Below are positions 3,001 to 12,000 of a stretch of 39,260 nt of DNA, one piece after another. Every line of letters starts with the position of its first letter. Positions within the stretch are counted from its first letter, which is position 1. This stretch comes from Candidatus Micrarchaeota archaeon (GTDB taxonomy: Archaea; Micrarchaeota; Micrarchaeia; Anstonellales; Bilamarchaeaceae): the NCBI GenBank assembly GCA_043816005.1, contig JBDRIM010000022.1:1-39260 (forward strand), read 5' to 3'. Made by a program: the position numbers.

Positions 3001-6000
3001 AAAACATAGCAGCAAAGATGCGAAGATAACTGAGATTTTCAGAAGAGAAGAAAAAGGAAACACACGAATACGATTTAGTAGAACTTATAAAAACACAAAA
3101 AAAATCCTAAGTAGTTATGCAAATGGAAAAGCAATTGAGGATTGACTACTTTTTCAATTTTGCCAACATCGAATGAAATTTTGTTGCATCAATACACTCA
3201 GTCCCAACTTCATGTGCAAATTTAACAACACCCTCATCTGATGATACTATTGCAGCTTCAAGTTCTTTTGCAAGTAAGACAAGTTCAAAATCTTCCTTGC
3301 TATCTATTATCCCAGTACGCAAAGCATCCCGATATTTCTCACGAAGTTTGCTTAATTTCTTATCATTATCAGGATTGTTATCTTTTGCAAATTCTTCAGC
3401 AAGCCTCATGCCCTTATTCATCCTTAAGCGTATATCTTCAATAAAATTATAGAAAACAGCAGCAGGAAGATATATCCCATATGTGTTTGGCGCCCTCTTT
3501 TTTATGATAAGTTCAAATTCAGTTAATGCTTTCGGATCGATAAAGTTTGCTAGTTCTTTGAACACAATTGGTGGCATATAAAATTCAACATCAAGAGTAT
3601 GAACATGCTTGATAAATGCAAGCATTGCAGAGCTTGGATTTTTGCCGAATTTCTCACGGGCATATGGATTGACAAAAAGCGAGGTATCCAGAACATATTT
3701 GCGGTTGGCCATGAGTGTGTAACAACTTCAAGGATTAAAATTGTTTACTTAAGCAAAATAAGGCAATGATTCATCAGATTAACTTAACAAGTCCTCTTCC
3801 TATTTCTGGGATATTACCACCAAAAAGATTTGTAGTGTTGAGTACAAAAGTTAGAAGAACTACGAATGCAATCATTGGGAAAAGACATATCGAATGAGAA
3901 AGATGACGAGTGAAATCATCTATTTGAACAGTAAATACATCAACCAGTGCATCCTTATTTGCTTTGAGCTGATCTGGAAGTTCCATTGCTCTGCCAACAT
4001 CTGCAGCACCACATCCAAGAACTTTGACATCACCAGGATCTGGGATGGAACATACATATTGAGTGCCGCTCAATTGATCAGGATCGAATGTTGAGATTAC
4101 AGATTGTGAGAGAGGCGTTGCAGTAGCTGCCATGAGTATATATGCAAGTGGAAAAACAAAATAAAGTCCAATAGACATTGCTATTACATACGCCCCAGCA
4201 CCTCGCGTTGGTGGAAATGCACGGAGAGCAACGCCAATAGAGAAAAAGAAACCAGCATAAAATTTGATAAAGTTGAAAATATGAATAAGCAAGTAAAATA
4301 TGTACATGTAAAATGACAGTGATTGGGTTGCGTTAGCTATACGTTCAGATAACCATTTAACACCAAAACCAGATGCATGTTCAGACATGAAAATTTCCAT
4401 GTATATTGACGCCATTCCATCAACAGGGATAGCAAGTGCATAAAGAAATTGCATGAATTTTGTGACGCACCTCGTCGGGGTTGCCATAAATAATTTCATC
4501 CAATCAATCAAAGTATCGCACTGCCCAGTTATAGTATCACACTCAAACGAATAGCCAAAAGTTGCTGGATCACTGCATGACTTTCCGAATGATGTTAAAA
4601 ATAAACATCTTGCCAGACTATCACCTGGATCAGCAAGAAGCCTTTCAAGAGTAGGGATAGTAAAAACAACAATCATCACTATGACAACTGTTGAAATTGC
4701 ATAGATAAACTCGGTTTTTGCAACCTGTTCAAGACTTTTAAGACTGAAAAGACGTGACATGAGAATAAGTATGGATGCAGCCAACACCCCGATTGCAGCA
4801 GCAGCTATGGATATTGTACCCCAATCTGCGTAATAACTCATGTCAAATGCCATTATATCATCCTTGTAAGAGAACTCACGTCAGCTTCTTCCCCTAAAGT
4901 CTTGCTTAAGACTTTTGCTGCAGCTGTAAATATGATAACATTTATTGCAGGAATTATAAAACCAACAACAAATGCAAAACTAATCATTGACATCGGAATA
5001 AGGAAAAGAGTAAGGAACATAGTACCTACAACTGATTGTATCATGTCTCCTATTCCTCCAAATACTCCACCGATTATATCCATTATGCCCCCGCCACCAG
5101 TATTGAAATTGTTTTCATAATACCGTTCAAGAGACTCCATAAAACCGCCATTAGCTGAATCGGAAAAGAAATCACTAATCATACTTCCAAATGAAACAAG
5201 CGGACCGCCTGAACGATTGTAGAAAATTGAGTACGTCAGTGTCGATAATGCAGGAAAAATAAAAAGGAACACCAATGCAACAGCAATCAATGTACCACCC
5301 AATTTCCTTGTTGGTGTAAATGATCTTAAGAAAATTCCTAATGGTAGATAAAAATTCAAAAATGCTTGGAGTGAAAATATGTAAACAACTAACTGTGCAT
5401 GATTGATAATGAAAGCAAGCGAAAGTGCAGTAGTCATATTGTAAAGAAGTTGTTTGAGTGGTGATGCAAGACCTGTAAGTGGTGATGCGACTAAACCAAC
5501 ACCAAGAGGTCTGGCATAAGGAGTCACAGAAGCAGATTGATCAACATAGATATTCATTATGTAATTAAGATTAAGCCAGCTGCTCATGTCAGTATCTACT
5601 TGCTCGTAATACATTTGAGCCGCTTCATAAATATTTGTATCATAGCCAACACTAGATGGGAGAAGGTCTAATGGAACAAAATCAGCAAGACGAAGATAAC
5701 TCAATGAACCAAGCATACCAAAGATAATCCCTATAAGCAATGCAGTTATCATAATTTCAAGTAATTCCTGTTTCACATATCCAATTAATTGCGGATTTCT
5801 GAAAAGTGTTCCCCACATATACATAGCTGCAAGCAATGTTATTGATGCCATCAAAGCTAATCCTGAAAGCGCAACAAACCACCAAAGTCCTGGAAGTGTT
5901 GCAAGAGCACCTGGATTTATCGCAGATGAACCGGAGATAATATCTATGGCGTCTTGCATCAAATCAACCGAAGGAAGGCAAAGAAATTTACATCTGCCTT

Positions 6001-9000: not shown

Positions 9001-12000
9001 AATGATATAAGAAATGCACCCGCATCACGAGTGGGTGGGAAAAATCTTAGCACAAGACCAGCAGGTAGAACAAAGGACACCATAAGCCCGTCGATAAGAT
9101 GAAGTAGTGCTATTTGAACTGAAACAGTACCGTAAAAAGACACTAAAGTATAACTTAGAACATTCGCAACTGAAACAAATGTATCCACCCCTGGAAATAC
9201 TTTATAGGTCTGAGTAAGAACAAATTCTCCAGTTCTTCTACTGAAAGTTGATAGCATTGATGCGCAAGCCTGTATTTTGAAAATATCCATACTTGCCTTC
9301 AGTGCACTATCGGAAACCGTTGTATGCATGAAGGATATTGCAGCTTCTGGAGGCCCTGAAAAGTGAATAGAATCATATAAGTGAAGTTCATTAGATGATA
9401 CAACAGCTTCTCCAACTGCAAACATGCCAATGACAAAGATAATTAACACAAAAGAACTCATAAGATGAGAGAGTTCAATGTTGAGATAGGCCTCCCATTC
9501 TGGAATTTTAAAGACTCTTGAAATTAGATAGGTGACTAGTATGATTATTGAAACAAGAAGGGCAATATCAACAAGCAGTGCACCATAGAAACCAAGATCA
9601 ACGCCACCTGCCAGAGGTTGATTAAATAAATCAGTTTGAAATGGGATTATTATATTGAAGATGATAATGTAGATCGCTGCGGCTAGTATTGAACCTGCAA
9701 GAATATTATTTGCCCATGTTGTGGCTCGTGCACGCGTCTCGGAACCAAACATCTGACCAACAACATATGCTGCTGCAGCCAACACCATCATTGCCGCTAT
9801 CAGAAGCCCTAATCCAGATTGTGCAATATTTAGGATTTCATTGATTTTTCCATGGCCAAGAAATGGATCATAAAGATCAAAACCCAATAATGTACCGGAA
9901 AAAAATCCCGGGAGTACTGCAACGAAAAGGAAGATAATGATTGCAACTATACCAACAGCAACAAGCATACTTTGTGCCCACACGCTTGCTTTTGCTCTTA
10001 TTTCAGAACCGAAAAGCTGACCAGCGACATATGCTGCCGCTGCGAGGATTACCATAGCTAGCATAAGTGGAGCCATTAAAGTTAGAATGAAAATAGCTTG
10101 ATCAGGAACAGCAACTGCTGGATCCTGAGGAAGTTGATTGAAGAATACACCTGAACTGGCCAATGATAGTGAAATTACAAATAAAAGAAAAATTAATTTT
10201 TTCATCTTAGACTACCTTTGTTAATCCGATAAGTTCAGCTTCTCCGCCGATCATGAGCGCAACGCTTCTGTATGCTGTAACAGTAATAATAATTTCCAAA
10301 ATCGTTGTGAGAGTAATGAGTATTATGAAAGGACTCACAGTAGTAACTTCTTTTATGAGGAAAAAGAAAAGACCTGCAGATGCACTTGCTGGCATGACCG
10401 GGTTATTGAATCCAGTCCAGAAAAAGTCCCCTGCCATTCCAACCATGAAACTCCAAATTGAGAAAACAGTACTAAGAAATCCGCCAACAACAGTGAACGC
10501 GCCTTTTACGAGATTAGAAATACTACAAAACATACGAACGATAAAATTTCCAGAACATGGTGCAGAAGCACCCGAAGTAGAAATATCAACAACACTAGGA
10601 GCATTAAATTCTTCGAATAGGTGTTGAGTTGCTTCGCCCTCTCCAGCATTTGTAACATCGCTTTGCCAATCACTAGCGCTTTTCGTTGTGTGCATTGCAG
10701 TTGCTGACGATGGATTGTATGTGAAATCAGCTGGTTGGTAAATGTCAAATATCATGTAATTAGACAAAAGAACCGCAAATGGAAATGCAAAATAAAGAGC
10801 AAATGCTATTGCAATAACACTTGAGCCAGTCTTTTTAAAGAATGGAAATGCGCGTATGATGAGACCAAGAGGAAATAATAATAGTGGTACTATATCTCTG
10901 GCAAAAAGCAACATAAATTCCTTACCCCATATAAGTGTAAGAAGATACCCGATCGCCTCGACAACAACTGTGTGTGCAGTACTAAGCATGCTCAAACCAG
11001 TAAATGGAGCTAGTGAGATGGAAATAATGTTCACGGCAGGGATTGGAGAACCGATTGGGAAACTGATCGTAGATAAGAAACCAATTAAGGCTTCGAAAAG
11101 ATAAAGGTCCATATATTGAGCTTTTAGTTTTTGTTCAAGAATACCCAACGAGGCTATTGAAAGAGAAATATGACTTGTAGTGAGGCCATTCAACACACAA
11201 TTAGGAGCAGCAGAGTTGAGATTATTAGCGTTGAGACAAGAATCAGGACTTGCGGATGCTAACGCTGCGGGTGGTATCGACGCAAGTAATAGTCCTGAAA
11301 CAGCAGTATTTAATATAGCATCAAAACTTAGCCAGAAAAAGATTATCATCATAGTGAAAACTAAGGTTGCAAGTTCCTCTCTTGCAACTGCAATCATCTG
11401 AGGATTATTAAGTGAATACCCGATTATAAATAATGAACTGACAACACAAATTGTAAATCCCAATGCAAGAGCTATCAATGTTCCTGCAGCAGGAGGTAAG
11501 GTTATCAGTAGTGGCAGCAGAACCTCCATAAGATTAATATTCTCTAACGGCTTTTTAATAGCTATTGCTAGTAAAATTTCTACTACTGTTTATGGGATGA
11601 TAAAATGTACAGAACACATTATATAAAAAATGCAAAAAAAATACATGGAACAACAATAAAAATAGCTGGTTGGGTCCATGATTTTAGAGATTTGGGAAAA
11701 TTAAAATTTGTATTAGTTAGAGATATAACAGGCATAATTCAAGTGATATTAAAAAAAGGAGTAGTAAGTGAAGAAATCCTGGAAGCAGTAAAACTAAATA
11801 AAGAGGACGTAGTTGCATTTGAAGGACAAATTAAAGAGAATAAAACAGCCCCAGATGGAGTTGAATTGGTACCTACTGGATTTGAATACTTGAATAAGGT
11901 TGAACTTAAATTGCCTGTAGATCCTACTGGTGTAGTGCCTTCTGAAATAGATACAAGACTCGATTATAGGTATTTAGATTTGCGAAGAAAAGAATCTACC

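Follow-up and report, generated by a model that had tools for sequence, protein, structure and literature searches.

Array organization and gene features

What do six consecutive genes for polytopic membrane proteins contribute to a micrarchaeal cell? We examined this question in the window, a stretch of 39,260 nucleotides that covers contig C22 of a Candidatus Micrarchaeota archaeon (GCA_043816005.1). Six head-to-tail ORFs, p1-p6, span positions 3774-11529 on the minus strand, exactly where a first-pass annotation had reported a six-gene array. It had also described the family as devoid of Pfam and NCBIfam matches, and our search of the six proteins agreed, with only two chance-level rows at E <= 1 (E 0.065 and 0.083).

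The first gene, p1 (10207..11529; 440 aa), encodes a polytopic membrane protein and was delimited by its ORF and by family alignments. It is followed by p2 (8616..10205; 529 aa), in which a signal-peptide-like start precedes two putative VirB2/TrbC-type pilin modules and the family core, and whose gene end, read in the sequence, does not encode the conserved C-terminal tail. p3 (7169..8614; 481 aa) has the longest core and carries a large insert on the outside, and p4 (5959..7167; 402 aa) again has a signal-peptide-like start. p5 (4853..5962; 369 aa) was assigned from its ORF, the family alignment, the tree and an ortholog alignment, and p6 (3774..4853; 359 aa) holds the position that adjoins the ATPase module in relatives. 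Together the proteins comprise 2580 residues. The intergenic gaps, in p1-p6 order, are 1, 1, 1, -4 and -1 nt; the six genes are translationally coupled, and thus equally co-expressed. The 75 nt upstream of p1 (11530..11604, minus strand) are shared with a divergent AspRS gene; read by eye, they include an A/T-rich TATA-like stretch 23-31 nt before the p1 ATG and may contain the promoter.

The array is flanked by housekeeping genes (PIN_5 nuclease, RNA ligase, CDP-archaeol synthase, AspRS, SurE and the RNA polymerase operon), and its GC content is similar to that of the rest of the contig. Neither an ATPase nor a free pilin gene was detected near it within this window. In a distant relative, AspRS likewise lies 3.2 kb upstream of pilin genes.

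Distribution and ancestral operon in Micrarchaeota

A six-frame profile search detected the family in 111 of 121 sampled genomes of the phylum, this genome and the unpublished genome G029 included (copy numbers per genome within Anstonellales are to be read as "at least"), in agreement with the earlier claim of a phylum-wide family. The ATPase was present in the same 111 genomes and the pilin in 110, and the same 10 genomes, which belong to 5 families, lacked family, ATPase and pilin. Family and ATPase therefore share one phyletic pattern, from which the pilin differs by a single genome.

Outside Anstonellales, the array was located directly upstream of the ATPase, on the same strand, at 13 of 21 ATPase loci (13 of 20 genomes), and 7 of the 21 had no array alongside; within Anstonellales, none of 18 ATPase loci (16 genomes) had an adjacent array. 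The first-pass statement that no ATPase adjoins the big arrays thus holds for Anstonellales but not for the other orders. There, all six genes were present wherever the locus was extended, and the arrays were often preceded, directly or closely, by pilin genes matching Pfam T4SS_pilin/TrbC. Downstream were two membrane-anchored proteins, a VirB4/CedB-type ATPase and a coiled-coil/winged-helix protein. At one locus, a single run contained a pilin, p1-p6, two anchor proteins, the ATPase, a 99-aa ORF and the coiled-coil protein. Phylum-wide, the basic arrangement is a set of six old paralogs in fixed order. In the genome studied here, this operon is split between the window (array), contig C17 (ATPase module) and contig C73 (free pilin); in addition, the array is present in duplicate, and p2 carries two putative pilin modules as fusions.

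Identity of the ATPase and pilins

The best NCBIfam rows of the ATPase were CedB (1e-20), the VirB4-like CD1110 family, CedD and VirB4_plasma, with HerA behind; among PDB sequences it matched HerA (3e-9) and VirB4 (4ag5, 1e-6). The anchor proteins resembled the CedB N-terminus in one of 14 tested (E 0.002). Micrarchaeota pilins matched PF18895 in 33 of 41 cases and PF04956 in 25 of 41 (E <= 0.01), and precomputed domains of these two families were found on 23 of 75 database relatives of the pilin.

No direct match to PF04956 or PF18895 was found on p2 or elsewhere in this genome. The p2 modules are linked to the pilin families transitively, via a profile of the Micrarchaeota pilins, which makes them putative pilin modules. 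With a non-iterative HMM of the 41 pilins, module 1 (9900..10199, minus strand, residues 3-102) had a domain E of 4e-13 (5e-25 in jackhmmer), and module 2 (9660..9797, minus strand, residues 137-182) had a domain E of 3e-9 (1e-17 in jackhmmer). An ESM Atlas search with module 1 also led to T4SS_pilin/TrbC clusters (scores 0.83-0.86). When the pilin of a relative was used as query, the best E in this genome was 5.7e-11, the positions not being among the matches listed. Whole pilin modules are fused N-terminally in 3 of 262 family proteins, p2 of the window included. An hhalign comparison of pilins with the N-terminal hairpin of the family aligned 16 columns at the equivalent helix end, at a non-significant probability of 0.9%.

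We consider it likely that p1-p6 are the polytopic membrane-platform subunits, in the role of VirB6/CedA, of a chromosomal, vertically inherited Micrarchaeota machine related to T4SS and Ced/Ted. The first-pass annotation had read the arrays as a VirB6-type translocation machine, and the operon with pilins and a split VirB4/CedB-type ATPase strengthens this reading in the sense of T4SS/Ced-like membership. The six subunits, made from one coupled transcript, would assemble into a single platform of mixed composition, aligned with the axis of the ATPase ring. On the cytoplasmic side, the C-terminal tail and the conserved loop rich in arginine would dock the ATPase module. The outer face would recruit pilin, to be assembled into a conjugation-type pilus or tube, and ATP hydrolysis would power both the extraction of pilin and the passage of substrate. 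DNA, taken up or exchanged as in Ced, would be the best single guess for the cargo. The machine is a candidate route by which a tiny DPANN archaeon exchanges material with other cells. We found no published description of the six-gene Micrarchaeota system in the literature.

Comparison with VirB6

As the first-pass annotation had noted, we could not link the family to VirB6 by sequence profiles. PF04610 (TrbL/VirB6) did not match the six proteins at E <= 1, and a six-frame search of the whole genome gave no match to it at E <= 10. The family profile retrieved no VirB6 among PDB sequences, its sole row being an unrelated chain at a chance-level E of 1. In hhalign comparisons with 41 VirB6 sequences (all PF04610, a narrow set of Rhizobiales type only), the family (19 sequences) reached a probability of 0.4% and p3 orthologs (77 sequences) one of 0.2%. 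As these comparisons were empty, homology to VirB6 is unproven.

AlphaFold2 models were obtained for p3 (pLDDT 84.7, pTM 0.83) and p6 (pLDDT 84.8, pTM 0.82). For the p6 model, TrwI/VirB6 ranked first among 48,161 chains (Z 8.5, rmsd 5.8 Å, 235 of 261 residues aligned), three TrwI entries were in the top 4 of 995 chains, and DotA ranked seventh (Z 7.4); the match to 8rt9_F had Z 8.7 with 244 of 272 residues aligned, and rmsd to TrwI was about 5.8-5.9 Å. For the p3 model, TrwI/VirB6 ranked only 24th (Z 7.8, rmsd 6.5 Å, 236 of 261 aligned). The first-pass annotation had given VirB6/TrwI as best PDB match of its two models; among the models here, this holds for p6 and not for p3. These Z scores are in the range that the structure-comparison tool deems unsafe for helical proteins, and unrelated helical proteins tied with VirB6 to within 1 Z unit, for p6 in particular (dynactin, Z 8.3; HIP1R, Z 8.1; IncA, Z 8.7). 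Foldseek searches with both models gave TTYH and crystallins as best rows (E 0.07-0.4). VirB6 was the only PDB chain that aligned along the whole core, from the p3 and p6 models and, according to the first-pass annotation, from its two models as well. An ESM Atlas lead (rank 14, score 0.90) was a cluster from Micrarchaeota; 23% of its members carry PF27251 CedA1. As judged from the models, the VirB6 fold match appears reproducible, weak and not decisive.

The lack of a profile link, together with fold scores within the noise range for helical proteins, would also be compatible with a lineage-specific membrane complex that does not descend from VirB6/CedA. Such a complex would have joined a HerA/VirB4-type ATPase to serve the envelope in some other way, for instance by exporting, anchoring or assembling giant cysteine-rich surface proteins or by building the cell envelope itself. 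This would suit the genome's second array, which is preceded by a 1337-aa protein and followed, with a stop/start overlap, by a 1416-aa secreted cysteine-rich protein, neither of which has a family match. However, the giant proteins accompany the duplicated array of Anstonellales only and are absent from the ancestral operon. That operon instead holds pilins matching T4SS pilin families, two putative modules of this kind are fused to p2, and VirB6 is the sole chain aligning along the whole core. We thus regard a lineage-specific complex as rather unlikely, though it is the most serious competitor of the T4SS/Ced-related platform.

Paralogy of the six subunits

The six are paralogs, p1-p5 having 18-22% identity to p6. 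Features common to all are an invariant E after TM1, the loop G..LR.FP.TR..G and an invariant P in the next helix. A GG-EIE-GLTRLI-type C-terminal tail is present in five of six, the exception being p2, both copies of which in this genome lack it. Five hydrophobic helices with basic short loops fit both the hydropathy pattern of 19 members and the AlphaFold2 helices of p3 and p6; judged from the basic short loops only, each subunit would have its N-terminus outside and its C-terminus inside. Family alignments showed that the outside loops differ greatly among paralogs.

In a tree of 61 proteins, 9 position-label changes were needed, compared with a minimum of 6 and a mean of 40.1 after shuffling; none of 200 shuffles was as low. 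The p2 genes formed one clade (SH-aLRT 87), the p6 clade (SH-aLRT 96) included both single copies that adjoin ATPases, p1 of the window grouped with p1 of the second array, and the family tree agrees with taxonomy. Database relatives of p3 at E <= 0.001 numbered 172, the best 120 of which had 42-89% identity and carried no Pfam domain. The six are ancient, non-interchangeable paralogs in fixed order, and throughout the phylum each position is an orthogroup of its own.

VirB6 and DotA are homo-pentamers capped by VirB5 according to the available text of a review that labels DotA a VirB6-class subunit (PMC12857230), so six different subunits would not be a known stoichiometry. This raises the idea of a single homo-oligomeric channel that comes in six alternative versions, used singly per partner or condition as in variable surface or pilin families; the very different outside loops, and the tandem pilin variation discussed for other T4SSs in the accessible part of PMC12102498, would agree with it. 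Yet each position is an old separate orthogroup that every array contains once, in a sequence of genes that is kept from one taxonomic order to another, p3 orthologs retain 42-89% identity across the phylum (in the best 120 of 172), translational coupling gives equal co-expression, and position-specific traits such as the missing tail of both p2 copies are kept. In view of these features, alternative use appears improbable. It is less probable still, indeed very much so, that the array belongs to an integrated conjugative element or plasmid remnant and not to a core cellular machine: VirB2/VirB4/VirB6-type genes are typical of mobile elements, but the array has contig-like GC content and housekeeping flanks (with AspRS near the pilins of the distant relative as well), it is found in 111 of 121 genomes with a tree following taxonomy, and this genome (86% complete) yielded no PF03432 relaxase and no coupling protein (PF02534) above the Pfam cut-off (12 bits at most).

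Copies in this genome

An HMM built from the six proteins detected 23 ORFs in the 85-contig genome, including 17 outside the training set (E 7e-57 to 1e-5): five on C37, three and a fragment on C38, three on C40, three and a fragment on C5, and one on C61. C40 and C5, which the first-pass annotation had joined, overlap by 141 identical bases, so that the ORF ending C40 and the one opening C5 belong to a single gene; this leaves about 22 family genes. The earlier count was 21, the extra one being the fragment at the start of C38. To call the family "expanded" to this number is misleading, since the base state is a six-gene array, which is present here twice and collinear. One further copy is of p6 type, and another eight or nine lie on small contigs. 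The latter (C37/C38) are probably from a second organism in the bin, as had been suggested, because exactly one strong p3 ortholog was found in 18 of 20 genomes of the genus, whereas two occurred in this bin alone.

Relationship to known systems

In the available text of PMC9905601 and PMC11868833, Ced of Sulfolobales consists of CedA and its paralog CedE, the CedA1/CedA2 pilins and the CedB and CedD ATPases, and Ted of Thermoproteales of TedA, TedC and TedB. As described there, both are chromosomal archaeal T4SS derivatives with a VirB2-like pilin, polytopic VirB6-like proteins and a VirB4-branch ATPase, and neither is presented with a relaxase; the Micrarchaeota family similarly co-occurs with ATPase and pilin, with no relaxase found in this genome, and the ATPase scores best against CedB and CedD. 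CedA and the five-helix CedE are VirB6-like and both required for DNA import in Saccharolobus (PMC11868833, in the part available), so that more than one such paralog can be needed. In contrast to the one or two described for Ced/Ted, Micrarchaeota have six in fixed order, and their ATPase is divided between a separate core and membrane-anchored pieces, of which the ancestral operon has two. The lineage also differs, being DPANN.

Like the VirB6/TrbL proteins (PF04610; TrwI of R388, PDB 7o3v, 8rt9 and 8rtd; Agrobacterium VirB6; Legionella DotA), p1-p6 are polytopic with about five hydrophobic helices and are encoded with VirB2 and VirB4 genes, in relatives and not in this window; unlike them, they have no Pfam or profile-profile similarity to VirB6. 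The rvh T4SS of Rickettsiales has several tandem VirB6-like genes, RvhB6a-e, which resemble the array as diverged tandem VirB6-type paralogs of a reduced, host-dependent organism. They differ in being "extended" VirB6 proteins of a bacterial diderm system with recognizable PF04610 domains.

Two other lineages offer parallels. The ultrasmall, host-dependent Patescibacteria (CPR) have a chromosomal VirB4/VirB6/VirB3/VirB2-like set with no obvious mobile-element context, and T4SS genes were essential for growth of one cultivated epibiont in a study cited there (PMC12102498, accessible part). Theirs is a bacterial system of the monoderm conjugation type, a VirB6 HMM profile sufficed to retrieve most of its VirB6 homologs, and a six-paralog array is not among the features described in that part. 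In Nanohaloarchaeota, likewise DPANN, SPEARE proteins tie a VirB4/TraG-like ATPase to large surface proteins with a proposed role in host interaction; as far as the available text of PMC10266531 describes them, these giant proteins carry the ATPase as a fused domain, and a VirB6-like array is not mentioned. In Micrarchaeota, the giants are separate genes, located beside the duplicated array only.

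A six-gene array of paralogous membrane proteins

The minus-strand interval 3774–11529 is filled by six ORFs, numbered here in the order of transcription: p1 (10207–11529), p2 (8616–10205), p3 (7169–8614), p4 (5959–7167), p5 (4853–5962) and p6 (3774–4853). From p1 to p6, adjacent genes are spaced by 1, 1, 1, −4 and −1 nt, and the array is thus translationally coupled. Between p1 and the divergent AspRS gene lies a shared upstream region of 75 nt, and a TATA-like A/T-rich stretch could be read by eye 23–31 nt ahead of the p1 ATG. Both flanks of the array consist of housekeeping genes (PIN_5 nuclease, RNA ligase, CDP-archaeol synthase, AspRS, SurE and the RNA polymerase operon).

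Proteins p1–p6 are paralogous to one another, with 18–22% identity to p6. All six have an invariant Glu directly past helix 1, and a G..LR.FP.TR..G loop followed by an invariant Pro in the next helix. A C-terminal tail of the GG-EIE-GLTRLI type is a further mark of the family, which is absent from both p2 copies of this genome. A six-frame alignment ran through one TGA at the end of p2, and the continuation was therefore read; the in-frame sequence past this stop does not encode the family tail, and a truncated or read-through p2 was dropped. In a hydropathy scan, five hydrophobic helices fit, with basic short loops and acidic long loops, and this charge distribution suggests that the N-terminus is outside and the C-terminus inside. 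Searches of p1–p6 against Pfam and NCBIfam gave nothing but two chance-level rows. A complex prediction for p5 and p6, each supplied as an alignment, scored 0.01 (mark, 0.32) and has no bearing either way. The same applies to expression, as among sequencing runs no RNA data set was listed as containing this 7.7-kb stretch.

Copies in the genome and a probable second organism

An HMM built from p1–p6 detected 23 ORFs in the genome. Contigs C40 and C5 share 141 identical overlapping bases and thus carry a second six-gene array, which bears out the first-pass annotation in placing an array across this junction with a secreted giant protein behind it. This cysteine-rich protein of 1416 aa (C5; positions 4131–8381 of the extracted locus L002) lies 3' of the array with overlapping stop and start. 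Its signal peptide is lipoprotein-like, and the protein is 3.7% cysteine and rich in acidic residues. The duplicated array is also flanked by an alanine-rich protein of 1337 aa encoded on the opposite strand (C40; positions 7933–11946 of locus L003). Neither giant has a family match, and Pfam searches with both returned nothing. One more family copy is present on contig C61.

The remaining copies are on small contigs. C37 carries positions 2–6 of a copy of the window array (42–50% identical) and C38 positions 3–6 of a copy of the C40–C5 array (31–38% identical); with C19, these contigs hold collinear copies of both arrays (31–50% identity), and diverged copies of the giant proteins (23–31%) occur on C38 and C19. 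Exactly one strong p3 ortholog was found in 18 of 20 same-genus genomes, and among 21 genomes of the genus only this bin has a second one, on C37. The estimated contamination of the bin is 5.5%, and C37, C38 and C19 are slightly higher in G+C. It is therefore reasonable to assign C37 and C38 to a second organism, as proposed earlier, and once they are set aside the main genome has 13 family genes, as previously counted.

Six old paralogs

We placed 61 members of the family, taken from this genome and from eight loci in as many other genomes, in one tree and labeled each protein by its array position. The labels required 9 changes (minimum, 6), compared to a mean of 40.1 after shuffling, and none of 200 shuffles was as low. 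The p6 genes formed a clade (support 96), as did the p2 genes (support 87), and for none of p1–p5 does a well-supported branch demand a second origin. Two origins are needed for p6 only because the single copy on C61, which was labeled apart, falls within the p6 clade. This copy is of p6 type, as is a single copy beside the second ATPase of another genome. Both arrays of the genome, in the window and on C40–C5, are collinear p1–p6 sets. Thus, the tandem arrays described in the first-pass annotation are real, but they do not reflect a recent expansion: positions p1–p6 correspond to six old paralogs.

The family is large, and nameless in Pfam and NCBIfam. Its profile matched 3264 cluster representatives (E ≤ 0.001), and p3 had 172 database relatives at the same threshold. 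The best 120 of these 172 were 42–89% identical to p3, none had a Pfam domain and, where the source was named, it was Micrarchaeota. When 30 of 150 listed distant representatives, including the eight longest, were searched against Pfam, none of the 30 had a domain, and so there was no informative fusion among them.

ATPase module

Three genes come after the family member on C61. They encode a protein of 260 aa whose N-terminus has two membrane helices, an ATPase of 1014 aa (positions 8090–11134 of locus L001, minus strand; the second VirB4/CedB-type ATPase) and a coiled-coil protein of 234 aa. The ATPase contains a LAGLIDADG-endonuclease intein within the P-loop, directly past Walker A. ATPase frames of 1047 aa (locus L007) and 1004 aa (genome G069) suggest the same insertion elsewhere. 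For the core of this ATPase and for uninterrupted relatives, the best scores were with CedB, CedD and VirB4-like conjugation ATPases, with HerA behind, all below curated cut-offs; among PDB sequences, the core matched HerA and VirB4. The 260-aa anchor protein had no PDB sequence match at E ≤ 1, and similarity to the CedB N-terminus was seen in one of 14 anchor proteins tested.

It had been objected that the arrays are not next to an ATPase. We inspected ATPase loci in other genomes, hand-picked rather than drawn at random from those bearing the ATPase. The objection holds for the order Anstonellales, where none of 18 ATPase loci (16 genomes) had an adjacent array and the module included only one anchor protein; the module on contig C17 of the studied genome likewise has one anchor protein and no adjacent array. 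Outside the order it fails: an array was directly upstream of the ATPase, on the same strand, at 13 of 21 loci (13 of 20 genomes), one locus had a single family member and seven had none. The arrangement there is the array, two paralogous two-helix anchor proteins, the ATPase and the coiled-coil protein, and every outside locus that was extended had six genes in the array. The missing ATPase neighbor is thus a rearrangement in this order and not the ancestral state.

Several genomes from two families encode a conserved polytopic protein of approximately 244 aa (243–249 aa) in the interval that separates p1 from the pilin gene (for example, at 14771–15502 of locus L027, with equivalents in L029, L032, L033 and L034). 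Its homolog in the studied genome lies away from the array (C41, 23549–24286). Pfam gave nothing for the 243–249-aa proteins, which may also belong to the machine.

Pilins and phyletic distribution

In one relative, an ORF directly upstream of p1 weakly matched TrbC/VirB2 and T4SS_pilin. When 41 relatives of this ORF were searched, 33 matched PF18895 and 25 matched PF04956 (E ≤ 0.01), and precomputed domains of these types were present in 23 of 75 database relatives. No PDB sequence was matched by the pilin profile at E ≤ 10. The studied genome has a free 84-aa pilin on contig C73, and p2 of the window carries two pilin modules ahead of the family core, with which the ESM Atlas agrees at the level of a lead. 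Fusions of this kind are uncommon, being present in 3 of the 262 family proteins examined.

Within 121 genomes of the phylum, including the unpublished G029, the family occurred in 111, the ATPase in the same 111 and the pilin in 110, counts in which related genomes are not independent. All three were absent from ten genomes of five families that are 89–97% complete (G018, G020, G046, G056, G077, G086, G113, G114, G115 and G119); these may represent one or a few clades.

Relationship to VirB6

The family had been likened to VirB6 on the basis of fold, with the caveat that a sequence-profile link was lacking, and here all sequence comparisons were blank. PF04610 matched neither p1–p6 nor anything else in the genome, the family profile gave a single chance-level row (E 1) against PDB sequences, and hhalign against 41 VirB6 sequences, a set started from the Ti-plasmid protein, yielded probabilities below 1%.

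The structural match recurred but was weak. For the AF2 model of p6 (pLDDT 84.8), TrwI, the VirB6 protein of plasmid R388, ranked first among 48,161 chains (Z 8.5, rmsd 5.8 Å, 235 of 261 residues aligned), and DotA, a VirB6-class protein of Legionella, ranked seventh; in a second search, three TrwI entries were within the top four. However, unrelated helical proteins were within one Z unit of TrwI, and the search tool cautions that Z values of this size are common for helical models. With the p3 model (pLDDT 84.7), TrwI was only at rank 24 (Z 7.8), being the only row there that spanned the whole core. Foldseek found no match below E 0.07 for either model. Its top rows, Tweety-homolog channels, share a similar overall helix layout with the family and were rejected with TM-scores of just 0.12–0.21. 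A VirB6/CedA role for this family is indicated alike by operon position, topology, the pilin fusion and the fold; common descent with VirB6/CedA is unproven.

A candidate conjugation-type machine

No relaxase was detected in the studied genome, which is 86% complete, and no coupling protein scored over the cut-off. In this respect the machine resembles the archaeal DNA-exchange systems Ced and Ted more than plasmid conjugation. PHROGs searches with ten system proteins gave only two rows, both of unknown function (E 0.0015–0.005). Work on Saccharolobus describes DNA import as requiring CedA and its five-helix paralog CedE, both VirB6-like, and CedB and CedD as each providing different parts of the VirB4 N-terminal domain (PMC11868833). 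The two anchor proteins may parallel this CedB/CedD split. VirB6 and DotA are described as homo-pentamers (PMC12857230), and a platform of six different subunits would therefore be architecturally new.

Most likely, p1–p6 are produced jointly and would assemble into a single mixed membrane platform, with the conserved basic loop and tail on the cytoplasmic side, where they would dock the anchored ATPase module. On the outside, the platform would recruit pilin into a conjugation-type pilus or tube, with the ATPase driving pilin extraction and substrate passage. As a more specific and rather doubtful proposal, one copy each of p1–p6 would build a pseudo-sixfold VirB6-type ring that matches a hexameric VirB4-type motor, its pilus or tube would serve as a conduit for DNA, lipids or other large molecules from host archaea, and a second version of the machine, made for host contact, would be encoded by the duplicated array and its giant cysteine-rich proteins. 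If true, this ring would be the first hetero-oligomeric VirB6 platform.

We found no description of the system in full-text literature on Micrarchaeota with VirB6 or CedB, a search to which supplements and most subscription journals are external. Judged by titles and the opening lines of abstracts, no article on Micrarchaeota and type IV secretion concerns it either, nor do the articles on DPANN with VirB4 or CedA as far as their listed entries and sampled passages show, and Micrarchaeota were unmentioned among the listed matches of the wider pilin and type IV secretion literature. The finding bears on how DPANN archaea, with their very small genomes and biosynthetic gaps, acquire material from other cells. 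A core-chromosomal machine in most of a phylum, which combines a pilin of conjugation type, a motor of VirB4 type and an unusual platform of six putative membrane subunits, offers a concrete gene set for tests in the few cultivable Micrarchaeota co-cultures. It would also widen type IV secretion, as six fixed paralogs point to mixed-subunit architecture where platforms have been described as homo-pentamers.

Possibly split genes elsewhere in the window

Two adjoining minus-strand ORFs (338–676 and 686–1285) each correspond to one half of Peptidase_S49 (profile positions 88–153 and 5–83, respectively). The pair resembles a gene of the signal-peptide-peptidase type that has been interrupted by a stop, a frameshift or an assembly error. 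RNA polymerase subunit B (20050–23366, minus strand) is encoded in three ORFs of 149, 348 and 612 aa, the first two overlapping at 22917–22951. B'/B'' splits of the archaeal enzyme are known and a third piece is unusual; it may reflect a frameshift.
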